Shown: positions 30,359-64,000 of the stretch, one piece after another | Layout: each line of letters begins with the position of its first letter | Position numbering within the stretch: position 1 is the first letter of the stretch | Assembly: GCA_016934325.1 (NCBI GenBank) | Contig: JAFGSV010000004.1 | Location: 11,538 to 75,537, forward strand | From: Candidatus Aenigmatarchaeota archaeon | GTDB taxonomy: Archaea > Aenigmatarchaeota > Aenigmatarchaeia > QMZP01 > JAFGSV01 | DNA: 64,000 nucleotides | Direction: 5' to 3' | Program-made: the position numbers and the translations under genes | The notes under the pieces: model-generated | Database searches by the model: none | What the model was told of the DNA's origin: nothing | The model's input: the letters and a program-made list of their open reading frames with translations, nothing else

Positions 30359-30564
30359 GACATTCCACTTGTTTATAATCGGTGAGAAGCTTTTTTAAGC
30401 TTATGCATATTTTTCCCAAAGGTGGGAATAATAGGAAAAATATGACACGATAATCATATAATTATGGATTATCATTCCATAATCATACAGTATAACTGAA
30501 AAATTGGCTCAATGCAGGGCACCGCAGATTTTAATATCACCGCCAATAAAAAGACAGCTAGGAT

Positions 30565-30648: not shown

Positions 30649-30764
30649 TGGTGCGCAATGAGAATTACGGTCTATTGAGGAAGGTAGGGGCTTTATAGCC
30701 GGAAAGAAGGCAGGAAACTAGATATTTACTAATACTGCCTATTTAGTGAGGAAATTCTCCCTGC

Positions 30765-30901
30765 TTATGGGCACAACAATAAACAAAATTAATAATATGT
30801 GTATCTCCATGTGCTCATACAAATAAGAGCTACCGTCATATAAGGGCACAAAATATAACAAAAGACGATAATTTTATATGTCCATGTGCCCATACACTAT
30901 A
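30765..30901. promoter_or_regulatory. Two ~75-bp tandem units upstream of fic, each with a GGGCACA...TGTGC(C/T)C inverted repeat
   Basis: GGGCACAA at 30769 and 30844. TCCATGTGC at 30806 and 30881 (period 75). TTTTATAT (30872-30879) lies about 27 nt before the fic ATG, between the arms of the second inverted repeat. Confidence 0.5.
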
Positions 30902-30902
30902 T

Positions 30903-40247: not shown

Positions 40248-41105
40248 TCAGCTGAAATCGGTGAGCTTCCTTCCGGCCGGTGCGATATCCTGCCCTGACG
40301 GCTTGAGGTCGAGCTTCTTGATTGCCTCCTTCACATGCTCCGTCTTGATCTTCCTGCTGGCAGCATGCTCCGCCGCCAGCCCGCTCGCCTTGAGCAGGGC
40401 CAGCCCCGTCCTTATGTCGCCGTTGCCGTAGCATTTCGCCGCGACGATCTCGAAGGCGTCTCGCTCCCAGACGTTCTGGACGAAGGCGTGCTTCTTCCTC
40501 TCTTCAAGTATCCGCCTGGTCTGCTCCATATCGTACGGCCTGAACTCTATCATCTCTGGTATGAGCCTCGACCGCACCCTGGTGTCAAGTCTGGCGAGCC
40601 AGTCCCTCTTTGTCGATATCAGGAATAGGCATTTGTGAGGCAGCTCCTCGACGAACTGGTACAGGAATGTCTGGTCGCTCGTCCGGTCTATCTCATCGAA
40701 CGCCAGGACAACCGACCCGAAAGACTTGAGCATGTGAATCACCAATGAGAACAGCTCGTCCGGGTTCCTGTATGAGGTGTTTATACCCAGTTGCCCGCAT
40801 AAGGAAAGGACCATCTTCTGCAGGTCCGTGTCCTTCCAGCAGTTGATGAGAATCGGGACCGTTTCAGAGCTTTCAGATTCCCTGAGCTCCCTGAAGATCC
40901 ACCTGATGCAGGCCGTCTTGCCTATCCCGGGTGGTCCATGGATGAGGATGTTCGTGCCGAGGGAAGGCAGGCGCTCGATGATGCTGGCCAGGTACTTCTG
41001 CTGCTCCTCCCTGAATGGCATGAGCCTGGGAAGATAATCTATGTCCAGGATTCCGGGGGATGTGAAGAGGGACTCTTCGTCCTTGAGCATGTCCTCAGAA
41101 TGCAT
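40248..41105 (-). CDS. cdc6: Orc1/Cdc6-like AAA+ protein, short form lacking the C-terminal winged-helix domain
   Basis: DYLPRLMPFREEQQKYL, Walker A ILIHGPPGIGKTA, Walker B LAFDEID, and lid GDIRTGLALLKASG. It ends about 20 aa after the lid (285 aa in total). Confidence 0.8.
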   Translation of the reverse strand: MHSEDMLKDEESLFTSPGILDIDYLPRLMPFREEQQKYLASIIERLPSLGTNILIHGPPGIGKTACIRWIFRELRESESSETVPILINCWKDTDLQKMVLSLCGQLGINTSYRNPDELFSLVIHMLKSFGSVVLAFDEIDRTSDQTFLYQFVEELPHKCLFLISTKRDWLARLDTRVRSRLIPEMIEFRPYDMEQTRRILEERKKHAFVQNVWERDAFEIVAAKCYGNGDIRTGLALLKASGLAAEHAASRKIKTEHVKEAIKKLDLKPSGQDIAPAGRKLTDFS

Positions 41106-41196: not shown

Positions 41197-41269
41197 AGCC
41201 CCGTAGTCTAGTGGTCAAGGATGGCAGGCTCTGGACCTGCAGACCCAGGTTCGAATCCTGGCGGGGCTA
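41197..41269 (+). tRNA. tRNA-Gln (anticodon CTG)
   Basis: Acceptor AGCCCCG/CGGGGCT. Anticodon arm GCAGG-CTCTGGA-CCTGC. T-arm CCAGG-TTCGAAT-CCTGG. Discriminator A. Confidence 0.9.
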
Positions 41270-41349
41270 TCCAAGCACGCTTGATGTCGTTTTTGTTGTG
41301 TCCAAGAGCGAGGGCTATAACAATATAAAACACATGACAAAATAATCTT

Positions 41350-41679
41350 ATGGATTTGGTTGACGAATTGAAAGAAAAACTGAAAAGATATTCGCGTGAA
41401 CAGATAATATTCACAACACATGCAAGAATACGTGCAATTCAAAGAGGTATCGATCTAGAAGATATTGTCGACAATATAATTAGGCCGGACAAATTAGACA
41501 CCGTAATCAGACAGAAAGCTGACAGACCTGACGAGGAAAAATTCGATTGTTACTTCATTTATAGCGGAAATTTGTGCCATAGGTATGTTTTAATACTTAA
41601 CAAGAAAATTATAATATGTACAGTGATAAAAATCAACAGAAGATGGCAAAGGAGAGTTGAGAAGCATGCAAGAGTTTAA
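41350..41679 (+). CDS. DUF4258-type putative toxin
   Basis: IIFTTHARIRAIQRGIDLEDIVDNI...IIICTVIKI fits the DUF4258 pattern (..t.HA..Rm.eRgI..e.i...). Confidence 0.65.
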   Translation: MDLVDELKEKLKRYSREQIIFTTHARIRAIQRGIDLEDIVDNIIRPDKLDTVIRQKADRPDEEKFDCYFIYSGNLCHRYVLILNKKIIICTVIKINRRWQRRVEKHARV

Positions 41680-42022
41680 ATTCGATTATGATAAAGAGAA
41701 TAACGACCTGTTTATTTACAGTGGTAAAAAGAAATCGACTGCAAGCGTCGAACTCGGAGATATAGTTTTTGATTTCGATAGCAAAAAGTCTCTTTCTGGA
41801 ATAGAAATCATGAATGCAACAAAATATCTGTCGGCATTGATTTCTGGATATAAAGTTAGCAAAAGTGCTCTTGCCAATCTATTATCATGTAAAGTGCAAT
41901 CTAAAATGATTAACAATTTCTTGCTAATCAAAATCATACTTGTAATGAAGGAAGAACAGCAAATTCCCGTAAATCTCACAGTCCCGAGAATCACAAGCCC
42001 AAGTCCTGCGATTGCATCATAG
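41657..42022 (+). CDS. DUF2283-type putative antitoxin with a C-terminal extension
   Basis: FKFDYDKENNDLFIYSG...VELGDIVFDFDSKKSLSGIEIMNATKYL fits the DUF2283 pattern. 23-nt overlap with the toxin ORF. Confidence 0.65.
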   Translation: MRSMQEFKFDYDKENNDLFIYSGKKKSTASVELGDIVFDFDSKKSLSGIEIMNATKYLSALISGYKVSKSALANLLSCKVQSKMINNFLLIKIILVMKEEQQIPVNLTVPRITSPSPAIAS

Positions 42023-42106
42023 AATGTCTATTATATTGAAACTCTTACTACCGCTTTCTTTATAAAATCTATGGATAATAAATAACCGGGGCTATAACCA
42101 AAAAAC

Positions 42107-42128
42107 GTTCAAACCCTGGCGGGGCTAT
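42107..42128 (+). repeat. att-like direct copy of the tRNA-Gln 3' end
   Basis: GTTCAAACCCTGGCGGGGCTAT compared with tRNA GTTCGAATCCTGGCGGGGCTAT (2 mismatches in 22). Confidence 0.65.
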
Positions 42129-42202
42129 ACGGTTTTATTTTCGAATCCCGTCAACTCATAACCCTGATTTTTAATTTCTATGTTTTCTTTGGAACACTGC
42201 GC

Positions 42203-42560
42203 ATGGAAATATTGCTTCAGAAGGTAGAGATAAGCGCCTGCGAAACAAGAGTTCTCATGCAGAATTACAAGATAATAGCCATAAGGGATTATTCAAGGAT
42301 ACCTGTTTTCAAGGCAAGTGTCTATCCGATTGTCATAATAATAAAGAAGGAAAAACCGAAAGAAAACAAGGTTTTAGCTGAACTCATGGAAGAGGACATA
42401 GACTTTGCTAAAGTCGGTCTTTCAAGGTCAATAGAACAAAGCCAATCCGACCGTTGGCTTTTTAACTTCTTACATGACAAGCACTTACGATTTAATAAAA
42501 ATTCCCCTTGCAAACATGACTCCATTATGATACCGTCATCCGGGCAACTAGTGCCTTTAT
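42203..42560 (+). pseudogene. Possible fragment of an Eco57I/TaqI-type DNA methyltransferase C-terminal (target-recognition) region
   Basis: IIAIRDYSRIPVFKASVYPIVIIIKKEKP resembles the C-terminal domain of type IIG/N6-adenine MTases. No catalytic motifs are present. The ORF then runs out of frame into the integrase gene. Confidence 0.3.
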
Positions 42561-42575
42561 TCACGGTGGTAACGC

Positions 42576-43580
42576 ATGAGAAAGACATGGACATACAAGA
42601 GGAAAAACATACCCGGGTGGTGGGTAGGATGGTACGAAGGAGGCAAGAGAAAGTCCAAGGCCTTCCCGAACAAGGCGCTTGCGGAGCATTTCGCCCAGAT
42701 AAAGTACCAGCAGGTCAACTCCGATGTCTTCACCAGCGTCGTCTCGGTGACATGGGATACACTGATGGAGGAATACGAGCAATCAAAGAGGGTCCGGGGG
42801 CTCACCGATGAAGGCATCTACCAGGCGATGCTCACCCTGAAGAAGCATTTCAGACATGCCTGCGGCCCCCTTAACTCAAAGCAGATCACCCAGGCCTCCC
42901 TTGACAAGTTCATCCTCAAGCGGGGGAAGCAGGTCGGCAGATTCACGCTGAACAAGGACATCTCGAACATGAAAGCGTTCCTCAACTGGGGAAAGAGGAA
43001 CAAATACATCAGCGAAGACGTCAGCGTCCATAAAGTCAAGGTCGATAACAAAGACGTCAAACCGTTAAACAGGAAGCAGGTAAAGAACCTCCTCCTCACC
43101 TCGCAGCAATACCCGACCTGGTACACGAGAATACTGCTGTCCCTCACCACGGGGCTGCGGAAGAACGACATAGAATCCCTCAGCGTCGCGGACATTGACT
43201 TCGAGATCAATGCAATAGATACCAGGAGCAAGAAGACCAGGAAAAGCATGCTCTTCAGGCCGCTGCCCCCGAAGGTGACAGACCACCTTGCGGTCTGCGT
43301 CGGCTCCCTGCCAGCAGGGCAGGTCAGACTCTTTACCGATAATCACACCCATAAGAAATGGAAGAAGATAAGGACACGGGCGGGGCTGCCGCACCTGCGT
43401 TACCAGGACCTGCGTGTCACGTTCAGCTCCCTCCTTGCCGAGGCAGGGGCATCGACCAGCGTCAGGCAGAGGCTGCTTGAGCATTCCTCACCGCAGATAA
43501 CCGAGGACTACTACACGAAAGTCCAGGACCCGGTTCTTCGCAACGCGGTGGACATGCTGCCGGTTGACGAATGGCTGTAG
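42576..43580 (+). CDS. int: Tyrosine recombinase / phage-type integrase
   Basis: N-terminal WWVGWYEGGKRKSKAF. Catalytic elements TGLRKNDI (R), YQDLRVTF (HxLR-like) and LLEHSSPQITEDYY (H...Y). Confidence 0.9.
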   Translation: MRKTWTYKRKNIPGWWVGWYEGGKRKSKAFPNKALAEHFAQIKYQQVNSDVFTSVVSVTWDTLMEEYEQSKRVRGLTDEGIYQAMLTLKKHFRHACGPLNSKQITQASLDKFILKRGKQVGRFTLNKDISNMKAFLNWGKRNKYISEDVSVHKVKVDNKDVKPLNRKQVKNLLLTSQQYPTWYTRILLSLTTGLRKNDIESLSVADIDFEINAIDTRSKKTRKSMLFRPLPPKVTDHLAVCVGSLPAGQVRLFTDNHTHKKWKKIRTRAGLPHLRYQDLRVTFSSLLAEAGASTSVRQRLLEHSSPQITEDYYTKVQDPVLRNAVDMLPVDEWL

Positions 43581-51547: not shown

Positions 51548-51688
51548 CTAACCTCCGATCCTGAAGACCTTTGTGCCGCATTTGGGGCAAGTGCCCTTCA
51601 TTGCAGGCTTTCCGTTCTTCAGCGTGACCTTCTGTGCATTCGACATCTCAACCTTTGCCTTGCATTTTACACAATAAGCCTGTGTCAT
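51548..51688 (-). CDS. DUF5679-type zinc-ribbon mini-protein (copy 1)
   Basis: GGAGGT then 6 nt then ATG 51688. Translation: MTQAYCVKCKAKVEMSNAQKVTLKNGKPAMKGTCPKCGTKVFRIGG (CxxC...CxxC). The ORF-track 5' extension is rejected. Confidence 0.7.
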   Translation of the reverse strand: MTQAYCVKCKAKVEMSNAQKVTLKNGKPAMKGTCPKCGTKVFRIGG

Positions 51689-51820
51689 CTCAAAACCTCC
51701 GATTTTATTTATGCGTAAATATTCGCGGGAGGGTATATAAATCAAATTCGGGCTGAAATCGGACGAAAGCAAGGCACTTTCACGCTTAACCGACAGTGGT
51801 CGAGCATAGAACTTGCGAGC

Positions 51821-51982
51821 TCACCAGAAATTCGGCTTCGGAGAGCGCTTGATGACATATACGACGGTGCCGCACCTGCTGCACTCGCCCTTAATGGCCT
51901 TCTTCCCGTTCTTCATGACGAACTCCTGCTCCTTGTCGACGTCGACCCTTTCCCTGCACTTGACGCAGTATCCTTCGGTCAT
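51821..51982 (-). CDS. DUF5679-type zinc-ribbon mini-protein (copy 2, not in the ORF track)
   Basis: MTEGYCVKCRERVDVDKEQEFVMKNGKKAIKGECSRCGTVVYVIKRSPKPNFW. It starts 18 nt after the KaiC-like gene stop. Confidence 0.6.
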   Translation of the reverse strand: MTEGYCVKCRERVDVDKEQEFVMKNGKKAIKGECSRCGTVVYVIKRSPKPNFW

Positions 51983-52000
51983 CACTGGCACCGCAAGAAA

Positions 52001-52720
52001 TCATATCTCTATGACCCTGAGCCCCTTCTTGCTGATCTCGAACGGGTGGATCAGGGTGCTGTGGTTCGTCCTTCTCATCTTCCTTATGGTCACGGTCCTC
52101 TTGAACTCCTCCGCCACGGGGACGAACTCCATCTTGATGACGGTGTCGACGATGTATTCGACGATGCCGCCCCCCGAGAGCGCCTCGCTGGTCTCCGGTA
52201 TCGTGCCCGTCAGGAAGGCCGTCACGCCGCAAGACTTCAGCGTGTCGACAAGCTGCATCAGCGCAGCCCTCGCGAGGTACTCGTCCTTGATGAACATCTC
52301 GATGAACGATACGGAATCGAGGACCACCCTCTGGGCATTGAGGGCCTTGATCGCCTCTATTATCTTGTCCGATATGCTGTAGACGTAAGACTTCACCAGC
52401 CTCACCATGTCCTCCGAGGAGATCCCCCTCGTCGGCAGGGCCGGCTTTATGCTCACGAAGCGCACGAGGTTCTTCTTCTCCAGCGTCTCGAAGTCCCAGC
52501 CGAACATGCTGCTTATGTCGGCCTTGACATCGACGTCCCTCTGCTCGGTCGTCACGTAGACACCCGGCTCCCCGGCAAGCGCCCCGCTGTACAGGTAGGA
52601 TATCGCGAAGATCGTCTTGCCGGTTCCGGTCTTGCCCGTTATCAGGTTCGCGCTCCCCTTGAAGAAACCGCCTTCCATCTTGTCATCCAGCCCGAGGACG
52701 CCGGAATTGACCCTGTCCAT
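52001..52720 (-). CDS. KaiC/RadA-like single-domain RecA-superfamily ATPase (paralog 2)
   Basis: VNSGVLGLDDKMEGGFFKGSANLITGKTGTGKT (Walker A) and VVLDSV (Walker B). It starts 25 nt after the stop of the giant ORF. Confidence 0.85.
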   Translation of the reverse strand: MDRVNSGVLGLDDKMEGGFFKGSANLITGKTGTGKTIFAISYLYSGALAGEPGVYVTTEQRDVDVKADISSMFGWDFETLEKKNLVRFVSIKPALPTRGISSEDMVRLVKSYVYSISDKIIEAIKALNAQRVVLDSVSFIEMFIKDEYLARAALMQLVDTLKSCGVTAFLTGTIPETSEALSGGGIVEYIVDTVIKMEFVPVAEEFKRTVTIRKMRRTNHSTLIHPFEISKKGLRVIEI

Positions 52721-52745: not shown

Positions 52746-55700
52746 TTATTCTTTTACCATGCTCCTGCCGCTGTCCTTCCTTGTCTCGGTCTTGGGCTTC
52801 TTCCTCCTGGCCAGCCTCTTCGGTCCGGACGCGAGCCACGACAGCATCGCCCCGGGCGAGAGCCCCTTGGTGATGATGATGCCCCTCTCCTTCTTCTTGG
52901 AGGTCATGAGCGCCCTGGTCTTCAGTATCTCCTCCTGCTTCTTGACGAGTATCTTGTTGAAAGTTGCCTCGTCTATCTGCCTCCTGAAATACTGCTTCTC
53001 GGTGTTGACCCTGGTCTGAATGAGCTCCTTCTCGTGCTTAATGAGGCCAGTTATCTCCTTCCCCAGCCTGCTGGAAGGCAAGAGGACCTGGGTCACCAGA
53101 TACGTGATAATGGTCGTCATGATTATAATCAAAGCGAGGATGTACCTGTTGTCGAGCAGGAACTTGTAGATCAGGAGCATGGGGATGGCAGAGTTCATCT
53201 CCGCTATGAAATTCGCCATGTTCCTGACGTCCACCCTCAGGCTATCGATGTCGTCGCTGGTTATGTCCGTCCTCGCGTTGGCTCCCAGCTGGGCGGCGCT
53301 CGACTTCAGGCCGCTCAAGACGCTGACATCGATCCCCGATGAGACCAGGTCCAGCATCTGCCTCTCTATCTCCGCAAGCGCGTTCTCGTTGTCCTGAAGC
53401 TCCCTGATGAGCTCGTTTTCGCTCACGGTCGCCTTGAGCGCCTTCGTTCTCCTGCTGATCCCCGACATGAAGGTGACGTTCACCTCGCATTCCCCGATTG
53501 CCTGGCTCAAGGGGACGTGCATGTTCATGAACAGGTCGGCCGAATCTCCGGCCTCGAGCTCGAGCGCGTCCTGCAGCGAGACCTCCGAGCAGCCGCTCTC
53601 GGTGACGATGCTGATAATCGTCCTGACGTTGCCCGTGTTGTTCGCGCTCACCCTGACCTTGTGGTCCTCGCCCTGCTTTATGGTCGCCTCATATTCGGAC
53701 AGATGGAAATCGAAGCCAAGCTTCTCAAGGCACTGGTCGCTGTACACGCAGCGCTCCGCCGGGCACACCCCCGTGGTCACCTGGCAGTCCCTCTTCTGGT
53801 ATACCTGCTCGCTCGTGCAGTTGCCCAGTCCGCATGCGACGTCAAGCCATCCGGTGCACAGGTTCGAGCAATTGACCATAGGCGCGATGCCGATGCCGGA
53901 TCCCGGGGACCCCGTCCCTGTGTCGCCGTTCCCTCCATTTCCTTCGGATTTCGTGCTGAGTGTGACGAGGCCCGTTCCCGAGTTGTTGAAGGCGTCCGTC
54001 GCCGACAGGCCAAGGGTGAAGGACTGGCCGGCGCTTGAATGCGCCTTGCAGCTGCCGCTTATGTCCAGATACGTGTCCGGCGGGCCCCCGCTCATCGAGA
54101 GCACAGCGTTGGGGCAGGTGAGGTTCAGCGTGCAAATATGGCCGAGGGTCTCCGACCTCTCGTTCCTTATGCTCACGTTTGAATATATCACGCTGGAGGC
54201 GGTGAACTCGGAACCCGAGGAGGGGGATATGAAGTACGGATATACGGCGCTGCTCACGCCGAAATCGAGCCTGGCGTATCCGCTGTTGTCGTTGCCGCTG
54301 ACGTTCAGCTCTATGCTGACGGCCCCCTCCAGGTCCGGCCCCGCCGCGTATTCGTAGGGATTAACTGTGCCGTTCGTGAAGTTCTGGACGCCTTCGATGG
54401 TAACGTTGACGGTCCAGTTCAGGGAAGCGACCGTGTGATTGTTGACGTCGAGCGCGAAGAAAACCAGGTTCTCGCCCCTGTTGTACATGCTGTGGTTGTT
54501 CGTCAGGTTTACTGTATATTCGTCGGTGACGTTCAGGGTGTTGTTGAAGTTCTTGGTCGTGTTGCTTGTCGTGTTCTTGCCGCCGTAATCGCTTGCGAAG
54601 AAGCTTATGTTATACTCCCCCATCATGCTGAGGGGAAGGACGTTGCCTAAGTCCAGCGTCCACCAGCTCACGTTCCCGGACTCGTTGAACTTGGTCATGC
54701 CAAGGCTCCCGTATGTCGAGCCGTCGGGGAAAGTCAGCGAGGCGTTGGCCTCCTTGATCCCCGTCAGGTTCTCCACAACCTCCAGCCACCCGCACGCGTC
54801 ATAGTACATGTTGGCATACCTTATGTGGGCCTTTTCCCCCGTACAGCCGTGCTGGAAGTGGAACCCTTGGATCTCGGGCGGATAGGGGTCTGACAGGATC
54901 ACCTGCAGGCTGGCTGAGCCGGTGCCGTTCATGCCCCGCCCGGTCGTGGAATTGGCGTCGATCATTGAAACGGTAGCCCCAAGATTGATCGCGCCCAGCG
55001 TGTAGTATACGTCCTTGTAGGAGGATGGTGCCGAATAGTTGCAGCCGTAGCATTTCAGGGAATCGTAAGTCAGGGGGTTCATGCTGCTGATGTTGACTAG
55101 GCTTGAATTGCCGAGGCTCATGTTAACGCTCACGTTCCGGGCGTCTCCACCTAGCACGGAGACCCTCGCCACGTGATACGTGTAGCTGGTCCCGTTTATG
55201 AGCGCCCACACGTAAGCCGTGACCGAGAGGGTCCCGTATTCCAGGAACAGCATCGATTCCTCCGACGAGGAATTGCCGGCGCCGGTCGAAGCGTGCGCCG
55301 TGATGGAATGGTTCCCGGACATGTTCGTGTTCGCGAAATCGCCGGAGTATAAGTAGCAAAGGCCCTGGATGCCGCTGGGGGTCAGCGCCTGCAGCTCGTA
55401 TATCTTGATGATGCCGCCCTCCGAGAAGTTCACCTTTATCCTCTTCGCCTTGAAGGGGACGAACCCGCTCAGGTTGTCCCAGGACTTGGCGCCTTCCGGC
55501 GCAGAGATGTTCTGCATGACCGGGACCCACGCGCCCGCATCTGTCTCCTTGTAGAAGACCGACACGTTCGGATCCCCGAAGCCGGCCGCCCTTGACCAAA
55601 GCAGATTGACCATGTTTATGGTCGAGGTCTTGTTCATGATAATCTCCAGCCACTGCTCGCCGCTCCCGCCCACTCCCGTCCAGTAATCATCGAAGTCCTC

Positions 55701-58700
55701 ATTGATGGAAAGGTTGCAATCGGTCAGCGTGCAGTCGGCATAGCTGCCCTGAGACATGGACGCAACGTTCCCGCTGCCGGCCGCGCCGAAGCAGTAGCTC
55801 TCGTTCGCCGATCCGTTCATCTCCAGCCCGACCTCCTCGATGTAACCCGCGAATTCCCTTTTGAACCATGCGGAAACCGAGCTGACATCGGAAACGTTAC
55901 CGGCGACGTAGGCGTTAAGGACGACATTCGTCTCCACGCTTGCGCTCTCCGGGGACGCGAAGGCCACGGGAAGGACGACCTCGTGCGACATCATGCCCGT
56001 CGTATTCGTTCCGTTGCCCGGGACGGCCTCGAGGGCCAGCCTGGTGATGCCGCCGGACGAGGTCAGTACATCCCATCCGAACGAATGCGTGCTTCCGTTG
56101 AGCATGTATTCCACGCTCTTGGGGGGCAGGACGCCGGAAACATTGATAACGGACCCGCCGGTGCTGTTCAGGGTCAGGTTCAGATCGAGCACATCGCCAT
56201 CAGAAGCGGTGACCTCAACGGAGTAGTTGAAGCTCTGGTTCACAAGTATTCGGTAGTTCTGATGTATGAAATGGGCTGAAATCTTCCCGAAGCCGACATC
56301 GAATGATATGTCGCTGTGAACCACCCTCCCGTCCAGGCTCAGGTTCGCGAACATCCGGACTGCGTGACTGCCAGACCTTGACGGGAGCAGGCTGGAATTG
56401 GTGAAATTCCAGTACCTGCAACCGTCCGCGTCCGTGTATGATGAGTTGGACAGCTTCATGCTATCGCTGACATCCGCCGTGTGATTGGAATAGTTGATTT
56501 CCGCCCAAACTGAATCGACTTCGCTCTGCAGGTCCGTCGTGACATTCGCTGACAGGATTATGAGGTCACCGTAATCCGGCTGGCTGTCGGATGCGGAAGC
56601 ATCGATCGCGAACTCGATCACGGTCATGTTCTCCTCCAGTTCATTCTGGGCGCTGGCGTTGTAGTATAGCGAGGGCTGATCAGTGATGTTGCACTTGACG
56701 ACATACCACGCTTCGCCGTCCGTTCCGTCATTGAACGAAAAAGCGGCCCTTCCGTCCGAGTCGGTCATGTTGCTGCCGATATAGGTATCGTTCATGAAGA
56801 AGGAGACGTTGTAGCCAATCAAAGCGGCCGATGAATGGGAATCTGCCACGTAACAAATCATCCTGTTGGAAGTGCCGTTAAGTATGACATCATGATCTAT
56901 TGATGCCGATGCCACGGACGCGTTGGCCCATAGAAAGAACCATGCGGACGGGGATGTCTGGTTAGAGTTTAGGCCGGCCAGGACGTATATGTGCTTGACC
57001 TCGATTTGGCCGCCCCGCACGAATTCGCCGGTGTCCGAGAGGTTCAGGGTGTAGTTCGTCCAGTTCCCGGCGTAAGGTCCGGGGATATAATAATCTTCGA
57101 AATCGCCGGTTCCGTTGTGCCTGACTTTCGCTTCCTCCGGGCCATCCTGCAGTATCCAGTGTGCGGACGCGTTGAGAGCCTGGTCCCTGGTGAACGAAAG
57201 GCCATTACCGAGCGGCCCCCCACTCGTATGGTTCGTCAGGTTCCAGTAATCCCACTCCGCGGACGACCACGACAGGACGATCGGCAGGAAGTCGGTGTTG
57301 TTTTCGTTGAGAGAAAGGCCGTAGTCGCATATGCCGTTCGTCTGGGAGGAGCAGTTCTCGGAGAATCCCGTCCCGTTGGGATGTGCCCAGAAGTTGCCGC
57401 CCAGGCAGGGCCCCCCCATTATGTTCTTTCCGCTCCCGAAGCAGTCGAGCGTGGTGTTCCAGTTGTTTATGGCCGTCAAGCCAACCAACAATGCGTTATT
57501 CGTGTTGTTGAGGAAGTTTTCGAATATGTTGTTCGGGCCCGCCCATCCGGCTTCGTTTGAGATGAAAAACCCACTGGCGCTATTATTGGTTATCGTATTG
57601 TTAGTGATCCGTCCCCTGTGCGAAGAATAGAGTCGGATTCCGTAATTGTTATAGCTGACCGTGCTGTTTGTGATATTTGTGTCGAAGTTGCTGTCGACGA
57701 ATATGCCGATAGACGAATGCGTGGCGTTTATCCCTGTCAGGGAGTTCCTGTGACAGTTTAATTTTACGTATATTCCGTTGCTGTTTTCCCACACAGTTAT
57801 TCCATCCAGCTTGTTGTCGTGAGAAAAGTCTTTTATTTCGATGCCATTTGATTGATCGTGCGAAACCGCGTCGATGACAGTGTTGTTCGAGCTCGTTTGG
57901 AACTGTATCCCGCATTCTGTGTTGTTGTAGGTGCTGCAGTTCAAGATGTAGCTGAAATCCACATAGTGGATATGGAAGCCTGTGTACCAATTTTTCGCAT
58001 GGCAGTTGGCGATGGTGAGATTCCTTAGATGGTTACCAGAAAGACCCTCGACCTGTATGCCCCGGCTATTTAAAAATTTGGAGCCCACTATCTCATGCCC
58101 CTGGCAATCGAACGTCACGTCGCTGGAGGTGATGTTGAAGCACGTCACTTCCGATGACACGGAGTTGTTGAGGTAGTAGACGCCGGGGGAAGTGATGTTC
58201 ATGCAGTCCGTCACGTTGCTGGGCGGGGAAAAGGCCACGCTGATGTTCCATCCCTCGCTCTCGCCCCGATTGCCGTAGTCGTCCATGCAGGACACTTCCC
58301 AATAATAATCGCCATTTCCCATAGCCTGTCGGAATGTCTGGTTGATATTCTTCAGCACGCTTGTGGTAGTGTTCTCGATAATCCCATACACGCCCAGTTT
58401 CCTGATATCTGCCGAAACCCAACCCAGATCGACGGTCCCGCCGATAGAAATCACCTGTTTATTGATATCGTCCCAGACCTGAGCATCAGTAACAACCTTC
58501 CCGAAATCGCCGCTGATATTCTGCACGGTATACGTGTTTATGTTGAATCTGGACGCGTTCAAGTCCCAGATCGGTCCTGACGTCCAATTGAACAATCCCA
58601 TTTGATAGTATACCCAATCACCGACCAGCACACCTGCGGCACCGTATGATCCGTGGGGTGAATTGGCAACGATGGAAGCGGTCTGTGAAGTCTTGTTGAA

Positions 58701-61700
58701 TAGAACTATGGTATCGAAATTGTCCGACGAGTTCTTGCCGTTTATCAAGAAGCATCTCTCATCAGCAGGTCCGACATCGATCAACAATGAATAAGAATAA
58801 TCGCTTGAAGGTAGTTCGTTGCCGGTGTCTATCACTTCACCGTCTGAAAGATCCCATCTCCAGATTGAATTCTGGCCCCCTCCCGCACCCGCCGTGGAAT
58901 TCCTGCCTCCCATGAACCACACATAGGTGCCGTTGCTGCAGGCATGGACATTGTATATCTCGTCCGGCAATTCAGCGCCCGCTGCCCATGAGATGTTGTT
59001 TGCGAAATCAATGAAATACGTCTTGTTCGTATAGGAGCCGTTTGTGCCCCCGCCGCACGCGAATGTTGTTACGTTTATCCTAGCGCATCCTTCCCGGTCC
59101 ATAGGCCAAGTCTTTGTCGGTCCTTGGGAAACGGTGTTAGATGCTATGTCATAAATGAAGGTGTAATTTGTCGGAACGTCCGTTTCGGCAGGGTTGTGAG
59201 TCCAATTCTCCGTTCCGCATATGCCAAAAATGTGCGTTCCGTTGTTCCAGCTGTATGGATTGTCGCAGGCTGTCGGAAGTGCGTTCAAGACGGATACGTT
59301 CTGCAGGGTCGCATTTGACGTTTCCTGAATTATGAGAGTGCAGTTGGTCACGTTGTTGGTATCCGTGACGTTGAAGGTGAAGTTGACCGTGCTTGAAGTC
59401 GCCCATATGTAGCCTTCGGGCGGATGGACCAGCGCCACGGCTGGGGACGTCGCGTCGAGGGTCACGAACCTCGTTTCCGTCGAATTCACGTTGCCGCCCA
59501 TGTCCTGCACGTATCCCTTGAACCTGTGCTGCCCCTCCGCCAGCTGGGTGAATTCACGGGTGAGATACCTCGATGACTGGTTGGCGTATAGCGCAAGGAC
59601 CTCTTCTGAAGACAAGGAGCGGTTGAAGACAAGCACATCGTCCATTGTGCCGTTTATGTATCTATCGGGCATTACTCCGTCAGACCCTATGAACAATTCG
59701 GCTGTGGATATGAAGGGGGGGATTACATCCGTGTCTTCAGCGCAAAAGGTGCCATCCCTGTAAATCACCCCCCTCGTGCTGTCATACGTGAAAACGTAGA
59801 ATACCCAGGTATCGATGGGGATGCTCGGACATGATACATCGAGGGTACAGCCGTCGTTGGTCGTGTTATAAATCCGGATGCGCATGCTCCCCGAGCTGTC
59901 AGCAATGACGGGATTTAAATGATCGTTATCGCCGACAAGAAATACATTCAAGTTTCTATAATTCCTGTAGTAAAGCCAAAAGGCATAGGTGCCCTCAAGC
60001 GAATTGTTCCCGGCGAAAGCGTCCACGTGCACATAATCGCCGTCCCCATCGAAATCGAACCCCTTCCCCATTCTTCCTGCATCAGTCTGCGACGCGTTGC
60101 CCTTTGCAGTCCCGTTGTCGTTGTTCATGTAGTCTATGACCAAGGCGCCCTCGCCCGTCTGGTTGACGTCATCGAACCTCCACCAGTTGATGAGGGAATC
60201 ATCAAAATCCATGATGAGCGATATGTTGGAAGCGGAGCTGTTCGCCGTCACGTTCATGAGAATGCCAGTGCCGGACACCTTCGAGCCATTGTCCGGGGCG
60301 GGGTAAACGAACATTATGTCCGGGGCGGGGAAGACATCGGTCAGCGGCAGGAAGTCCACGTTGCCGCTCGTGAGGTTCAGCCATGTGTCGCATATCCCGT
60401 CTCCATGCATATCCAAACAGGTCTGGGAATGCCCGCTACCGTCGGGGCTAGCCCAGAAGTTGCCGCCCATGCAAGAACCATTTAATATGTTCGGCCCGGC
60501 CGTGCAGTTGAGGGTCGTGTTGAAATGGTTGCTCAAAATGGTCCCCCCGATCTGGGTGTTGTTGGTGTTGTTGAAGAAGTTGTTGTATATGATATTCTGG
60601 CCCGGCGAACCACCCGAACTCGACAGGAAAAGGCCGAATTGCGAGTTGTTCCATATCCGGTTGTCATTAATCGTGCTTCTCTTCATGGAGCTCAGGTATA
60701 TACCGGTATCGATGTTCGAATAGATATTGCCTTTATTTATAATCGTACCGTCTGCGTTGCTGGACAGGTAAACGCCGAAATCGTTGCAGCAGGAGGTGAC
60801 GTTCTCTATCGTGTTGTTGGTGGAGCTGGAAATGGAAATCGCGAAAACGTTTTCATTCGCGGTCGTATTGGTGATAGTGTTCTTGTATGAGCCGCTACTC
60901 AAGGCGATGCCGATAAGAACATTCTTGCTTGCCGTAATGCCGGTCAGGTTGATGAAAGAGCAATTCTCAACCGATACCCCGTGTACGGTGTTGTTCATGC
61001 TCGTGGTGTTCATTATCACGCTGTTGTTGACGTGCCTGAGGTACAGGCCCCTGTCCCACAACGAAAAGTTGCAATTGATAATGGTTATGTTTGTAAGGTC
61101 GGTGCCCGTCGAGGAATTCGCTAATATCCCGTATGTGCCCTGCTCGAGGTTTCCCTGCACGTCATGCCCCTCGCAGTCGAGGGTCACGTGGCTCACGTTG
61201 ATTGTGAAGCATGTGCCCTTGTCCCAGTCATGTATGCCCGCGTTCAGGGAGTAAACCCCCGGGGATGTTATATTGGTGCAGTTGTCGATATCCCCGGGCA
61301 GGGATCCTATCAGCTGGAAGTAGTCGTTCATTATATTGAGCTCCAGGGAGACGTTGTGGGTCTCAGAGGCATTGACGTATCCGCTCTTGTTCGCGTAAAC
61401 CGTGTAGTTGGATGTGGAGTAGTAGTGATTAGTGCCGCCGCTGTTGATGTATTCTATGAGCGACCCGGTCGGTGTCCATCCGTCGCTGGCGGTCGTGAGG
61501 CTCTCGATGAGGGCGCCGCTGCCATTGTATGCGCTCACGGCCGCTCCTGTGATGCCGTTTCCTGCGCTGTCGTTGACGTATGCCCTGTAATGCCACCTCC
61601 TGATTAGCGTCGAGTTCAGATTCACCGTCTCGTTCGCATAAGTGAAGTTGAGGAACGTGTTGTTGAAATTGGATGAGCCGGAATCGTCAGTCATGACCAC

Positions 61701-64000
61701 CCCAGTTCCGTCTATGTTCGTCATGTTCGTGTCCCTGAATAGGTTGTGGCTGCAATGGTCGCCAGTGCCGGAAGAGGATATCCATATGCCATAGTTTGAG
61801 CTCTTGTTCACCTGGTTGCTATCGAAGACATTGTAGTCCGATTCCCCGATACGAATGCAGGCGTGAGAGCCGCCGGTGGAGCAGTTCCAAATGCTGTTAT
61901 TGCTGACTATGCTGTTTTGGATTGCCCGTTCGAAATAGATTCCGTAAAATAAATTCGAATGTATGTAGTTTTCTGTTATTGTGTTGGAGTATGATTGTGT
62001 GTACAGGGATATTCCGTCGTAAATGTTGGAATCGATGGTGTTGCCCTTTATGGTGTTGTTGTGTGAACCGTTGTACAAACGTAACCCATAAGCCGAGTTA
62101 GATTCAATGGTGTTGCCCTCTATGGTGTTGAAGCTGTCGTTTTGGTCTAGGTATATCCCGCTCTTAGTATTCGATGTTAAGGTGTTGTTCATTATGGTGT
62201 TGCTGTCTGAAAAGAAGTTCAGCTCGATGCCCTCTTGAGAGTTCGAATTAGCCGTGTTGTTCGATATGGCGTTCAAATGGGACCAAAATAAGTGTATCCC
62301 GTCAAATCCGTTCGAGCTTGCGTTGCTGCCCGTGATGCTGTTGTTGAAACTGTAGTATATGTATATCCCATGCTCGTCGTTCGAGGTTGCGTTGCTGCCC
62401 GTGATGCTGTTGTTGAAGCCACTTCGGATGTAAAACCCATACGTGTTGTTCTGGCCCGTGCTGTTTAAGATCGCGCTGTCGTTGACATACCTGAAATACA
62501 CGCCGCTGTCCCATTTGCTGATGTTGCAGTTCATTATGGTTATGTTGATGAATTCGCTGCCTTCCGACGAATTGGCGATTATCCCGTACGTGCCCGGTTC
62601 CGATGATCCCCTGATTGAATGGCCTGAGCAGTCGAGGGTCACATCGCTGACGTTGATTGTGAAGCATGTGCCCTTGTCCCAGTCGTATATGCCCGCGTTC
62701 AGGGAGTAAACCCCGGGAGCAGTGATGTTGGTGCAGTTCGTCACGCTCATCCCAGCCGATATCTGCACCGTGTCGCTGGCGTTGAGTACATCATAGCCCT
62801 GCGACGAGCCGTTGCACTCGACGCTCCAGGAATAGAGGCCTGCTGACGTGAAGCTCCTGTCGAAGTAGTAAATGCAGCCGGACTGGTTGTAGGTCATGTC
62901 GAAAGGCCCGAACGGGGTCGCGTTGAATGAGATGTTGCAGTAGACGTCCCACTCGCTTATCGATTCGTTTGAGGTGGTGTTCGTGAAATTGGCGAAGAAG
63001 TGCAGCGACTCGTTGGCTCTCACGGTCTTGCCGCCATAAGGCATCCCCGGGTCCGTCTCGTCCCAGATCGTCATGTTCGAGTTCGATCCCGTGGTATAGT
63101 TGGAGAAGCCCTCGGCCTGGAACAGCAGCGTTCCCGAGCCATAGCTCTGTATCGTGCAATCCGAGCATATGGCGCCGTCACTGTAGATGAGGGGTGACGA
63201 TAGATAGGGCAGCGATGTCAGGGTGAGGTTTACTGTATCGTTGAGCGTCGAGTTAAGGTTGGCGGGATTGGCCCCCGCAAGGTTATGGCCTATGAATACG
63301 TTCGCGTCGAAATCCTGGCCGGATATGTTTACCTTGCCGATCCATTCGATCCTGCCGGCCGAGGCGTTCTCGAGCCAGAACCCGGACACGTTCCCGTAGT
63401 CTATTATCCCGTAGTTAATATCCTTCCCCGTATATTTGGTCAGAGTCGGCATTATCCCGTTATAGACCGTAATTTCCTGGGTGTATGAGCCAGTTTCCGC
63501 ATTGTCGCCGTCGGAGCAGTTCATGGCCCATGAATAGATGCCTTTTGGTAATGTGGCGTTTATTTTATTTGTCAGGCTCTTGGAAATAGAGCTCTGATTC
63601 GACTGGTACTTGGAGCCATCCAGTAAAAGCGTGCAGTTTGATATCTGGGCTAACCCGGTCACATTGAATTTGAAATCGATGGCCGAGGCCGAGCTGATTG
63701 CCGTCCTGTTCGTCGGATAAACGAGCACTATCGTCGTCAATGTCGTGTTCAGATAGAATGTGAAGTTGTTCGCTGACCAATTGCAGTTATGGTAAGTGTC
63801 GCATGCGAAGCAATTCCATTCATAAGTCCCTTCGTTGAGTGTTTTGCTGAAGGTAGTTGTGTTGACCTTGCCTGAAATGCTCTTGGTCTCGTTGGCGGCC
63901 CATTCTCCGGACAGGTTGCCCCAAAGGGTGACGTTGAGAAGAGCCCTGTTGTCCATCGCCGTGCAGTTGAAAGTCACTGCCTCAGTGCCAACCGTGCTCC
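52746..64000 (-). CDS. Giant (>3743 aa, N-terminus outside the window) glycosylation-sequon-rich surface protein with 3 beta-helix modules, LamG-like, Kelch-like and discoidin-like regions, and a C-terminal TM anchor
   Basis: A single ORF with no in-frame stop between 63977 and the window end. Beta-helix modules lie at ~62745-61600, ~61290-60350 and ~58215-57270. LamG-like region at ~60230-59560 (LVFNRSLSSEEVLALY). Kelch-like at ~59300-58400. F5/8-C-like at ~55780-55380. TM at ~53190-53080. The cytoplasmic tail is basic. Confidence 0.85.
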   Translation of the reverse strand, partial: STVGTEAVTFNCTAMDNRALLNVTLWGNLSGEWAANETKSISGKVNTTTFSKTLNEGTYEWNCFACDTYHNCNWSANNFTFYLNTTLTTIVLVYPTNRTAISSASAIDFKFNVTGLAQISNCTLLLDGSKYQSNQSSISKSLTNKINATLPKGIYSWAMNCSDGDNAETGSYTQEITVYNGIMPTLTKYTGKDINYGIIDYGNVSGFWLENASAGRIEWIGKVNISGQDFDANVFIGHNLAGANPANLNSTLNDTVNLTLTSLPYLSSPLIYSDGAICSDCTIQSYGSGTLLFQAEGFSNYTTGSNSNMTIWDETDPGMPYGGKTVRANESLHFFANFTNTTSNESISEWDVYCNISFNATPFGPFDMTYNQSGCIYYFDRSFTSAGLYSWSVECNGSSQGYDVLNASDTVQISAGMSVTNCTNITAPGVYSLNAGIYDWDKGTCFTINVSDVTLDCSGHSIRGSSEPGTYGIIANSSEGSEFINITIMNCNISKWDSGVYFRYVNDSAILNSTGQNNTYGFYIRSGFNNSITGSNATSNDEHGIYIYYSFNNSITGSNASSNGFDGIHLFWSHLNAISNNTANSNSQEGIELNFFSDSNTIMNNTLTSNTKSGIYLDQNDSFNTIEGNTIESNSAYGLRLYNGSHNNTIKGNTIDSNIYDGISLYTQSYSNTITENYIHSNLFYGIYFERAIQNSIVSNNSIWNCSTGGSHACIRIGESDYNVFDSNQVNKSSNYGIWISSSGTGDHCSHNLFRDTNMTNIDGTGVVMTDDSGSSNFNNTFLNFTYANETVNLNSTLIRRWHYRAYVNDSAGNGITGAAVSAYNGSGALIESLTTASDGWTPTGSLIEYINSGGTNHYYSTSNYTVYANKSGYVNASETHNVSLELNIMNDYFQLIGSLPGDIDNCTNITSPGVYSLNAGIHDWDKGTCFTINVSHVTLDCEGHDVQGNLEQGTYGILANSSTGTDLTNITIINCNFSLWDRGLYLRHVNNSVIMNTTSMNNTVHGVSVENCSFINLTGITASKNVLIGIALSSGSYKNTITNTTANENVFAISISSSTNNTIENVTSCCNDFGVYLSSNADGTIINKGNIYSNIDTGIYLSSMKRSTINDNRIWNNSQFGLFLSSSGGSPGQNIIYNNFFNNTNNTQIGGTILSNHFNTTLNCTAGPNILNGSCMGGNFWASPDGSGHSQTCLDMHGDGICDTWLNLTSGNVDFLPLTDVFPAPDIMFVYPAPDNGSKVSGTGILMNVTANSSASNISLIMDFDDSLINWWRFDDVNQTGEGALVIDYMNNDNGTAKGNASQTDAGRMGKGFDFDGDGDYVHVDAFAGNNSLEGTYAFWLYYRNYRNLNVFLVGDNDHLNPVIADSSGSMRIRIYNTTNDGCTLDVSCPSIPIDTWVFYVFTYDSTRGVIYRDGTFCAEDTDVIPPFISTAELFIGSDGVMPDRYINGTMDDVLVFNRSLSSEEVLALYANQSSRYLTREFTQLAEGQHRFKGYVQDMGGNVNSTETRFVTLDATSPAVALVHPPEGYIWATSSTVNFTFNVTDTNNVTNCTLIIQETSNATLQNVSVLNALPTACDNPYSWNNGTHIFGICGTENWTHNPAETDVPTNYTFIYDIASNTVSQGPTKTWPMDREGCARINVTTFACGGGTNGSYTNKTYFIDFANNISWAAGAELPDEIYNVHACSNGTYVWFMGGRNSTAGAGGGQNSIWRWDLSDGEVIDTGNELPSSDYSYSLLIDVGPADERCFLINGKNSSDNFDTIVLFNKTSQTASIVANSPHGSYGAAGVLVGDWVYYQMGLFNWTSGPIWDLNASRFNINTYTVQNISGDFGKVVTDAQVWDDINKQVISIGGTVDLGWVSADIRKLGVYGIIENTTTSVLKNINQTFRQAMGNGDYYWEVSCMDDYGNRGESEGWNISVAFSPPSNVTDCMNITSPGVYYLNNSVSSEVTCFNITSSDVTFDCQGHEIVGSKFLNSRGIQVEGLSGNHLRNLTIANCHAKNWYTGFHIHYVDFSYILNCSTYNNTECGIQFQTSSNNTVIDAVSHDQSNGIEIKDFSHDNKLDGITVWENSNGIYVKLNCHRNSLTGINATHSSIGIFVDSNFDTNITNSTVSYNNYGIRLYSSHRGRITNNTITNNSASGFFISNEAGWAGPNNIFENFLNNTNNALLVGLTAINNWNTTLDCFGSGKNIMGGPCLGGNFWAHPNGTGFSENCSSQTNGICDYGLSLNENNTDFLPIVLSWSSAEWDYWNLTNHTSGGPLGNGLSFTRDQALNASAHWILQDGPEEAKVRHNGTGDFEDYYIPGPYAGNWTNYTLNLSDTGEFVRGGQIEVKHIYVLAGLNSNQTSPSAWFFLWANASVASASIDHDVILNGTSNRMICYVADSHSSAALIGYNVSFFMNDTYIGSNMTDSDGRAAFSFNDGTDGEAWYVVKCNITDQPSLYYNASAQNELEENMTVIEFAIDASASDSQPDYGDLIILSANVTTDLQSEVDSVWAEINYSNHTADVSDSMKLSNSSYTDADGCRYWNFTNSSLLPSRSGSHAVRMFANLSLDGRVVHSDISFDVGFGKISAHFIHQNYRILVNQSFNYSVEVTASDGDVLDLNLTLNSTGGSVINVSGVLPPKSVEYMLNGSTHSFGWDVLTSSGGITRLALEAVPGNGTNTTGMMSHEVVLPVAFASPESASVETNVVLNAYVAGNVSDVSSVSAWFKREFAGYIEEVGLEMNGSANESYCFGAAGSGNVASMSQGSYADCTLTDCNLSINEDFDDYWTGVGGSGEQWLEIIMNKTSTINMVNLLWSRAAGFGDPNVSVFYKETDAGAWVPVMQNISAPEGAKSWDNLSGFVPFKAKRIKVNFSEGGIIKIYELQALTPSGIQGLCYLYSGDFANTNMSGNHSITAHASTGAGNSSSEESMLFLEYGTLSVTAYVWALINGTSYTYHVARVSVLGGDARNVSVNMSLGNSSLVNISSMNPLTYDSLKCYGCNYSAPSSYKDVYYTLGAINLGATVSMIDANSTTGRGMNGTGSASLQVILSDPYPPEIQGFHFQHGCTGEKAHIRYANMYYDACGWLEVVENLTGIKEANASLTFPDGSTYGSLGMTKFNESGNVSWWTLDLGNVLPLSMMGEYNISFFASDYGGKNTTSNTTKNFNNTLNVTDEYTVNLTNNHSMYNRGENLVFFALDVNNHTVASLNWTVNVTIEGVQNFTNGTVNPYEYAAGPDLEGAVSIELNVSGNDNSGYARLDFGVSSAVYPYFISPSSGSEFTASSVIYSNVSIRNERSETLGHICTLNLTCPNAVLSMSGGPPDTYLDISGSCKAHSSAGQSFTLGLSATDAFNNSGTGLVTLSTKSEGNGGNGDTGTGSPGSGIGIAPMVNCSNLCTGWLDVACGLGNCTSEQVYQKRDCQVTTGVCPAERCVYSDQCLEKLGFDFHLSEYEATIKQGEDHKVRVSANNTGNVRTIISIVTESGCSEVSLQDALELEAGDSADLFMNMHVPLSQAIGECEVNVTFMSGISRRTKALKATVSENELIRELQDNENALAEIERQMLDLVSSGIDVSVLSGLKSSAAQLGANARTDITSDDIDSLRVDVRNMANFIAEMNSAIPMLLIYKFLLDNRYILALIIIMTTIITYLVTQVLLPSSRLGKEITGLIKHEKELIQTRVNTEKQYFRRQIDEATFNKILVKKQEEILKTRALMTSKKKERGIIITKGLSPGAMLSWLASGPKRLARRKKPKTETRKDSGRSMVKE

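Follow-up and report, generated by a model that had tools for sequence, protein, structure and literature searches.

A stretch of 64,000 nt from a Candidatus Aenigmatarchaeota archaeon (contig JAFGSV010000004.1; hereafter the window) ends in a giant minus-strand gene (52746..63998) that is followed by a gene for a single-domain KaiC-like ATPase (52001..52720, minus strand). The giant protein belongs to a family in which a variable, adhesin-type distal ectodomain is joined to a conserved, sequon-rich membrane-proximal core and a 330-aa anchor module. The favored interpretation, to which a probability of roughly 0.55 is assigned, is that it is a type I adhesin-like giant glycoprotein coupled through its cytoplasmic tail to the KaiC-like ATPase. 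The giant protein by itself is of a known kind; what is new is the conserved anchor and tail together with the KaiC-like partner. Giant archaeal surface proteins are known, and KaiC-like ATPases, the inputs of which are mostly unknown, are suspected signaling hubs, a role reportedly set out by Makarova et al. in mBio in 2017. The pair described here joins both. No account of this family or of its KaiC pairing was found in the literature, where an earlier description may nonetheless exist.

The giant gene consists of 3750 codons and a stop codon, in a frame that continues without a stop to the edge of the window. Counted from the first GTG, the open reading frame (ORF) is listed as 52746..63977 (minus strand) with 3743 aa. 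A first-pass annotation had described a single unbroken minus-strand ORF over the last ~11.2 kb whose real N-terminus lies beyond the window, and translation agrees on both points. A stop-free frame of 11.25 kb could not plausibly arise by chance at ~55% GC. This frame, the domain matches, the collinearity with an ortholog across 1730 aa and the retention of sequon positions together indicate that the gene is real and under purifying selection.

The family was assembled with an exhaustive HMMER profile search using the C-terminal 900 aa, which returned 223 representatives at 50% identity, with E-values under 1e-30 for 122. The family thus comprises at least 223 clusters at 50% identity. The 330-aa C-terminal module is covered end to end in 91 of the 146 matches detected, and nothing in Pfam, NCBIfam or PDB resembles it by profile or sequence search. 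A hidden Markov model (HMM) of the module, built from an alignment that includes the window sequence, matches aa 3422-3747 of the window protein at E=3e-114, tail motif included, and detects no second family copy in the 64-kb window. AlphaFold2 modeling of the C-terminal 900 aa with three sequences was unusable (pLDDT 37.9). The module modeled with a 50-sequence alignment reached a pLDDT of 94.7 and a pTM of 0.74. In module numbering, the model predicts a beta-sandwich (residues 9-106), three helices (109-133, 139-160 and 164-196), a long helix (198-251) that would contain the transmembrane segment and run on into the cytoplasm, and two further helices (257-292 and 295-313). The beta-sandwich alone finds neighbors in Foldseek searches of PDB and BFVD; these are PapD/ASH/MSP-like, at query-normalised TM-scores of no more than 0.28. 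Translated to the window protein, the model and fold search suggest a PapD/ASH/MSP-like beta-sandwich as the first element of the anchor module (aa 3429-3526; 53421..53714, minus strand), followed by three putative extracellular helices beside the membrane (aa 3529-3616; 53151..53414, minus strand). The coiled coil that had been proposed near the C-terminus is therefore replaced by three separate predicted helices that lead into the transmembrane helix. The single transmembrane helix (aa 3618-3642; 53073..53147, minus strand) is supported by hydrophobicity as well as by the model, and the basic helical cytoplasmic tail (aa 3643-3750; 52749..53072, minus strand) by charge, model and alignment. 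The best-conserved stretch of the module is a juxtamembrane cytoplasmic helix bearing the family-wide motif R...EK.YF.R.IDE.TF.......Q (EKxYFxRxIDExTF), which alignment places at nt 52935-53012 (minus strand).

Members of the family range from ~1000 to 6221 aa. Most of the full-length members listed are built alike: a hydrophobic signal at the N-terminus, an ectodomain with 4-7.5 sequons per 100 aa, a transmembrane helix near the C-terminus and, beyond it, a tail of roughly 90-120 aa. The smallest members (~1000-1100 aa) are barely more than the conserved ~900-aa core. Longer members carry differing N-terminal modules, for example PA14/GLEYA in P0136 and Ig-like repeats in P0041 and P0050. The distal ectodomain is variable and probably of adhesin type, with beta-helices in the window protein and other modules elsewhere in the family. 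Many long members (P0033, P0035, P0041, P0042, P0043 and P0050) have a conserved segment of the type SPQPRILLV(R/K)DAHY straight after the signal peptide, and P0136, P0150 and P0153 have a related form; the segment is without annotation and is missing from the clade of the window protein. Another member, P0016 (MEE9323087.1, 1637 aa), from an Aenigmarchaeota metagenome-assembled genome (MAG), is annotated as an archaeosortase/exosortase family protein. It has an extra hydrophobic segment past the family transmembrane helix and looks like a fusion of the surface core with a sortase-like membrane domain.

The partner gene in the window encodes 239 aa and starts 25 nt past the stop codon of the giant gene, on the same strand, with no terminator-like site in the 25-nt gap. 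Its product matches PF06745 over profile positions 1-228 of 231 (206.6 bits; cut-off 26.6). Partners retain Walker A (GKTGTGKT/S), a TTE[EQ] (or TEE/AEE) acidic motif and Walker B, and share a subfamily-specific insertion of ~20 aa. Among themselves they score 235-430 bits, compared with 80-205 bits against other KaiC-like genes from the same loci. The window partner scores 424-429 bits against the partners of the orthologs, but only 122 bits against the second KaiC-like gene of the window (24217-24912, plus strand), a single-domain ATPase that falls outside the partner subfamily. The nearest relatives of the partner are KaiC CI domains, PH0186, PH0284 and SSO2452. It is not a circadian KaiC, since it scores 98.5 bits against TIGR02655 (cut-off 546) and has one domain rather than two in tandem, nor is it ArlH (45.3 bits against NF052589; cut-off 215).

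The pairing recurs throughout the family. Because a broader alignment was too diverse, metagenomes were scanned with an alignment of the tail only, which yielded 46 loci. A KaiC-like gene lies downstream in 42 of these, on the same strand in 41, and starts ~50-740 nt past the tail match. In the 40 loci where the KaiC-like gene is complete, its product scores 254-424 bits against the window partner. When tails are clustered at 70% identity, the partner is present in 20 of 23 lineages. In assembled genomic loci, the partner is beside or near the family gene in six of seven contexts other than that of the window, and is adjacent or nearby in L001-L003, L005, L006 and L008-L012. The spacing varies: the partner is 9 nt downstream of P0050 (L009, with a second KaiC-like gene upstream), 45 nt downstream of P0024 (L012), overlaps the gene for P0026 by 38 nt (L011), and is ~1.6 kb upstream of P0033 on the opposite strand (L008), while a 779-aa fusion follows P0136 (L010), with further KaiC-like genes around. 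Pairing with a dedicated KaiC-like subfamily is thus nearly universal and operon-like. The first-pass annotation, partly supported overall, had mentioned neither the family nor this pairing.

Some loci contain additional components. The partner domain in L010 (18606-20945) is preceded, within one polypeptide, by ~520 aa of extremely acidic, low-complexity sequence, and the same locus contains T2SSE, two T2SSF genes, an archaeal flagellin-type gene, V4R and four more KaiC-like genes. In L009 (3752-7266), the family gene, which has KaiC-like genes on both sides, is immediately preceded by genes for a GT4 glycosyltransferase and an STT3/AglB oligosaccharyltransferase. Neither type IV pilus genes nor AglB can be regarded as general companions of the family, because T2SSE/T2SSF and STT3 each adjoin a family gene in one locus only. 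A second, distinct KaiC-like type is next to the pair in L009, L012, L019 and L020, with the Walker A sequence GATGTCKT in L009 and L012, which hints at a two-ATPase version of the system in some lineages.

The sequence of the giant protein is consistent with a heavily glycosylated ectodomain. It contains 213 N-x-S/T sequons (5.7 per 100 aa), compared with 77 +/- 7 in composition-matched shuffles (z=19) and with 0-0.64 per 100 aa in six cytoplasmic proteins from the same window. Just two sequons fall within the last ~350 aa and none within the last ~150 aa. Of the 75 sequons in the 1510 aa that are conserved between orthologs, 58 (77%) keep their position in P0007, at 54% identity, and 58 of 75 do so in P0008, at 41% identity; the chance expectation is ~4. 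Sequons therefore outlast the average residue, which argues for their use. The only strong hydrophobic segment of the protein is aa 3617-3642, and the 115 aa that a hydrophobicity script places after the membrane core contain 29 K+R and 12 D+E. This anatomy fits a topology with the ectodomain outside and the basic tail inside (N-out, C-in). Beyond the transmembrane helix, 108 aa make up a conserved helical tail, and no NCBIfam sorting-signal model matched, leading to rejection of a PGF-CTERM/archaeosortase sorting anchor. The heavy sequon content, the single transmembrane helix and the basic tail of ~110 aa had all been noted in the first-pass annotation. Its overall description of a real, C-terminally anchored, sequon-rich, multi-domain surface protein is supported by translation, profiles, sequons and the transmembrane helix.

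Domains of the ectodomain were assigned by Pfam and NCBIfam profile searches against curated cut-offs, and motifs were located by regular expressions on the translation; all coordinates that follow are on the minus strand. The beta-helix and LamG assignments are solid. Three parallel beta-helix blocks of the NosD/CASH type are found at aa 419-760 (61719..62744), aa 904-1221 (60336..61289) and aa 1929-2241 (57276..58214) from profiles, self-comparison and motifs. Self-comparison alone delimits them at ~aa 410-760, 900-1220 and 1920-2240, with mutual identities of 33-56%. NosD (PF05048) scores 229.8 bits (cut-off 23.6), Beta_helix (PF13229) 154 (cut-off 25.9) and the NCBIfam beta-helix repeat model TIGR03804 71.5 (cut-off 19.45). 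True NosD, the nitrous-oxide reductase maturation protein (TIGR04247), is rejected at 61.7 bits against a cut-off of 300; the fold alone is shared. The shared opener of the three blocks that had been read from the translation, C[TM]NIT[AS]PGVY.LN...CF.I..S.VT.DC.GH, recurs at aa 422, 907 and 1932, and the closer ascribed to blocks 2 and 3, GGNFWA...GICD...N.DFLP, is found as a cap at aa 1178 and 2200. The LamG, or concanavalin A-like, domain (aa 1317-1467; 59598..60050), also proposed earlier, matches Laminin_G_3 (PF13385) at 67.6-71.3 bits (cut-off 27.6) over profile positions 1-150 of 151.

The remaining ectodomain assignments are weaker. An Ig-like region at aa 1-415 (62754..63998) is suggested by weak profile matches, by its G.Y.W...C.D motifs and by homology to an internal region of the ortholog P0007 and to a 626-aa secreted protein, P0003. 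The pattern G.Y.W...C.[DG] occurs at aa 153 (GIYSWAMNCSD), 387 (GLYSWSVECNG) and 1896 (GDYYWEVSCMD). GTYEWNCFACD falls outside the pattern, yet is readable near the N-terminus of the translation. Thus, all four motifs named in the first-pass annotation exist, three of them by pattern, but the Ig-like profiles (Big_7, Big_13 and Big_3_2) match weakly and below cut-off. A small beta domain at aa 800-890 (61329..61601) resembles CarboxypepD_reg (E=0.14), and aa 1472-1585 (59244..59585) may form further Ig-like domains (weak Big_13 and Big_7 matches). A Kelch-like region, probably a beta-propeller, spans aa 1587-1880 (58359..59240); Kelch_6 (23.4 bits; cut-off 25.3) and Kelch_4 (18.7 bits; cut-off 21.6) are both short of their thresholds, and the region has no PDB sequence match. 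A putative discoidin (F5/8 type C)-like domain at aa 2762-2868 (55395..55715) matches F5_F8_type_C (PF00754) at 24.3 bits, under the cut-off of 28.2, over profile positions 15-126 of 127. The Kelch and discoidin calls made earlier are therefore backed by matches, but none that passes a Pfam cut-off. Between block 3 and the discoidin-like domain is a beta-rich region without domain assignment (aa 2242-2735; 55794..57275), where collinearity with P0007, P0008 and P0009 starts. The conserved sequon-rich, beta-rich family core (aa 2869-3370; 53889..55394) contains no known domain by profile and PDB sequence searches, and is followed by a Cys-rich knot with 9 Cys (aa 3377-3423; 53730..53870). A PDB sequence search with the C-terminal 1179 aa upstream of the anchor found no match. 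If its 20 or more domains were extended, the ectodomain could be several tens of nm long, a rough figure from typical domain sizes.

The relatives of the window protein indicate how the distal part varies. A word-indexed search with the C-terminal 900 aa found two fragments with 69% and 51% identity, and the GTDB species set contained one locus with a relative. Loci L001-L003 are all cut by contig ends and have in common the downstream order KaiC-like, DUF5679, aIF5B. Closest in the profile search are P0007 (6221 aa), P0009 (3157 aa) and a protein of 3540 aa, all of them complete. P0007 and P0009 start with signal peptides and are encoded in the same chromosomal position as the window protein (L005 and L006), with an inositol monophosphatase gene upstream and KaiC-like, two DUF5679 genes, aIF5B, TBP and PAP2 downstream. 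Window aa 2007-3737 align with P0007 aa 4472-6199 at 51.6% identity, aa 84-703 with P0007 aa 2708-3387 at 38%, and aa 419-1221 with P0007 aa 32-883 at 45%. The LamG and Kelch-like section between beta-helix blocks 2 and 3 (~aa 1240-1910) has no counterpart in P0007. This piecewise alignment suggests that the distal part is shuffled among orthologs, and the true length of the window protein thus cannot be inferred from them. With the N-terminal 420 aa as query, no ortholog was found and the sole match was the 626-aa secreted protein, at 29% identity. In the window (51548-51991, minus strand), L001, L003, L005, L006 and L013-L017, the KaiC-like partner is followed by one or two very small genes for DUF5679 zinc-ribbon proteins. 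These genes are confined to the clade of the window protein, and there are two copies in the window, L001, L005 and L006.

A plausible sequence of events can be proposed for the assembly and function of the system. An N-terminal Sec signal peptide, as seen in orthologs, would export the chain, and AglB would N-glycosylate the ~200 sequons. Transfer would then halt at the C-terminal helix, so that the ectodomain ends up outside and the basic tail stays inside. Glycans on particles or on another cell may be the ligands of the distal beta-helix, LamG, propeller-like and discoidin-like modules. The conserved tail would dock the KaiC-like ATPase, the gene of which is adjacent and presumably co-transcribed. 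Signaling could run in either direction: surface contact may be converted into an ATP-dependent cytoplasmic switch, or the ATPase may cluster or regulate the surface protein.

Several observations weigh against an adhesin coupled to an ATPase. The 5' end of the giant gene is beyond nt 64000, and the N-terminus and signal peptide of the window protein itself are hence outside the window. The Kelch, discoidin and Ig-like assignments are all below Pfam thresholds. KaiC-like genes are common in these genomes, with two in this 64-kb window; three of the 23 metagenome lineages have no downstream KaiC-like gene, and none is present within 6 kb of the gene for P0041 (L007). Adjacency could also reflect co-regulation alone. 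The smallest family members match ordinary S-layer proteins in size, a point that bears on the main alternative, in which the protein is the S-layer or envelope protein of the cell, the core and anchor form stalk and lattice, the N-terminal modules decorate it, and the KaiC-like protein is a regulator or assembly factor. This alternative is the strongest of the rivals, although unlikely. The attributes of archaeal S-layer proteins, namely export, glycosylation and a C-terminal transmembrane helix, are all found here, with the signal peptide visible in orthologs only, and the dense, position-conserved sequons and Cys-rich stabilization are as expected. The gene is single-copy in the window and keeps its chromosomal position amid housekeeping genes, and the minimal members of ~1000-1100 aa are core only. 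Size and C-terminal anchoring are no argument against a lattice, because a Pyrobaculum protein of 292 kDa with a C-terminal transmembrane helix and basic tail forms an S-layer (bioRxiv 10.64898/2026.08.21.746120). S-layer-like proteins with one C-terminal transmembrane helix also occur in archaeal type IV pilus loci, with which KaiC-family ATPases are separately associated (PMC4858521). However, the positional orthologs vary from 3157 to 6221 aa with shuffled modules, which is hard to fit to a fixed lattice geometry, and the distal modules are glycan-binding types typical of adhesins. PDB sequence searches with the whole protein, the module and the core found no match to solved S-layer proteins.

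It is considerably less probable that the protein is a cell-anchored polysaccharide-degrading enzyme, with a lyase, hydrolase or epimerase activity seated in the beta-helices, and with LamG and discoidin domains serving as carbohydrate-binding modules, as domains of these types frequently do. The NosD/Beta_helix (CASH) fold is common to pectate lyases and mannuronan C5-epimerases, and the only PDB sequence matches of the whole protein are AlgG-type epimerases on one beta-helix block (E=7e-4). Yet these matches are marginal (19 bits) and cover the repeat scaffold only, and no catalytic family is among the Pfam or NCBIfam matches. In other members, Ig-like or PA14 modules stand in place of the beta-helices while anchor and KaiC partner are kept, which rules out catalysis as the function common to the family. 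Finally, the truncation of the short-contig relatives L001-L003 within the gene and the diverged repeats inside it could point to an assembly artefact (repeat collapse or chimera) or a decaying pseudogene. This is scarcely credible for a frame of 3750 codons without a stop that is collinear with complete orthologs and retains their sequon positions, and independent assemblies show identical gene order. Repeat collapse in particular was rejected as unlikely, because the internal DNA repeats reach 120 nt at most (88% identity, also the best match), no tandem repeat array was found by internal comparison, and the repeats at the protein level are 33-56% identical.

If the adhesin-like protein is indeed coupled to the ATPase, a wider interpretation is possible, although it is tentative and rather doubtful. 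The pair may be an archaeal counterpart of integrin-type adhesion receptors, in which contact is sensed or controlled by a hexameric KaiC-like ATPase to which a giant glycan-binding ectodomain is joined through a conserved single-pass anchor and tail, and it might serve as a host-contact structure of an Aenigmatarchaeota (DPANN) episymbiont. The conserved pair would then be a hitherto undescribed input module for the archaeal KaiC-like signaling network. The best-conserved part of the module is inside the cell, which provides a testable candidate for linking touch to response in some archaea, possibly including DPANN episymbionts, whose attachment to hosts is poorly understood. All five family clusters with an informative NCBI organism name (P0108, P0016, P0017, P0021 and P0042) are Candidatus Aenigmarchaeota/Aenigmatarchaeota archaeon and a sixth is labeled just archaeon, which lends the episymbiont role indirect support only. 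In a small source genome, 11-19 kb for one gene would amount to 1-2% of the total, which would imply a central role. Eight hot-spring Aenigmarchaeota MAGs are 0.52-0.82 Mb with 25.5-47.9% GC, and MAGs from other studies average 0.86 Mb and 38.6% GC (PMC8407114). The window, at a GC content of 0.55, is above both values, and family loci range from 31% to 59% GC. Judged by this GC content and the biosynthetic genes of the window, a DPANN origin was given about even odds. The family is probably not confined to reduced genomes, because L010 encodes arginine biosynthesis.

The remainder of the window is archaeal, with ThrRS carrying an archaeal editing domain, aIF2-gamma, aIF5B, TBP, Cdc6/Orc1 and ribosomal proteins. 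It also encodes DNA gyrase A and B, aspartate carbamoyltransferase, malate dehydrogenase, a Na+/H+ exchanger and rubrerythrins. Two other candidate surface proteins are present. A secreted protein of 941 aa (3312-6137, plus strand) has a signal-like N-terminus, a Beta_helix match of 38 bits and 4.5% Cys in DxDxD-rich linkers; with ~1 sequon per 100 aa and no C-terminal transmembrane helix, it is of a different kind from the giant protein. A 473-aa protein (21135-22556, plus strand) has a signal peptide, a long helical C-terminal half and CWB2 cell-wall-binding repeats, which are best known from bacterial surface proteins and are unexpected in an archaeon. Two adjacent TadC/T2SSF-like genes are found at 33655-35927 (plus strand), and no secretion ATPase was recognized in the flanking genes checked (polysaccharide deacetylase and HAD hydrolase). 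The GC content at 41-48 kb is below that of the rest of the window. In this region, the 3' 22 nt of tRNA-Gln(CTG) (41197-41269) are repeated at 42107-42128 with 91% identity, flanking a segment of 34-37% GC. A tyrosine integrase gene (42576-43580) follows the repeat and a Cdc6/Orc1-like gene (40248-41105) is just upstream of the tRNA; 41197-43580 resembles an integrated element, either small or a remnant, that occupies a tRNA att site. A second tRNA-associated island may lie at 30564-31844, where the GC content beyond tRNA-Leu(TAG) is low (0.416 over 30-32 kb) in a stretch that contains a Fic/DOC gene (30903-31844). Another low-GC stretch (8001-10000; 0.443) has no recognized genes, and its ORF at 9116-9598 is without a Pfam match.

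Known systems resemble parts of the proposed one. SlaB of Sulfolobales and tetrabrachion of Staphylothermus combine beta-sandwich domain(s), a helical stalk and a C-terminal transmembrane helix in a glycosylated surface structure, a layout like that of the window protein. Both have long parallel coiled coils, and neither is known to have a conserved long cytoplasmic tail or an ATPase partner. They are not among the best 50 fold-search matches listed. PySLP, the 292-kDa protein of Pyrobaculum and related Thermoproteota, is likewise very large, multi-domain and Cys-containing, with an export signal, a C-terminal transmembrane helix and a basic tail. Compared by description, however, PySLP has Ig-like domains only, a membrane-proximal beta-hairpin, a short tail ending in Lys and a different gene neighborhood without KaiC, whereas beta-helix and LamG domains, three predicted helices beside the membrane and a conserved 108-aa helical tail characterize the window protein. 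The adhesin-like proteins (ALPs) of Methanobrevibacter and Methanosphaera share right-handed beta-helix repeats, Ig-like adhesive domains and a single transmembrane helix (PMC11532034), but are mostly anchored at the N-terminus, are much smaller and number dozens of paralogs per genome, and no conserved cytoplasmic tail or KaiC partner has been described for them. The giant proteins of Omnitrophota are also encoded by very large genes that fragment assemblies, with extracellular beta-helix, discoidin and Ig-type modules proposed for cell attachment (bioRxiv 10.1101/2023.11.21.568195). These bacterial proteins exceed 10,000-30,000 aa, contain numerous transmembrane helices as well as fused SecA-DEAD domains, and are unrelated to the window protein in sequence and anchor.

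On the cytoplasmic side, docking onto membrane machines and a role as signaling hubs have been established or proposed for KaiC-like ATPases (PMC4858521). Like PH0186, PH0284 and SSO2452, ArlH (FlaH) is a single-domain KaiC/RecA-type ATPase, as is the partner. The partner differs in that it belongs to a subfamily of its own with a specific insertion, far below the ArlH cut-off, and it would presumably dock on the tail of a surface protein with a single membrane pass rather than on ArlI/ArlJ. The SPEARE protein of Nanohaloarchaeota, which are also DPANN archaea, is the closest precedent in logic. It too is a giant archaeal membrane-anchored ectodomain with Ig-like and lectin-like modules and a proposed role in host contact, and its gene is directly upstream of a gene for a cytoplasmic P-loop ATPase (PMC10266531). 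SPEARE and the window protein have no detected sequence relationship, and their anchor modules are unlike. The ATPase of SPEARE is of the VirB4/TraG family, with one such domain fused into the giant protein and a further gene immediately downstream (PMC10266531), which points to secretion. The ATPase of the window, in contrast, is separate, single-domain and KaiC-like, and profile searches recognize no ATPase domain within the 3750 aa of its giant neighbor.

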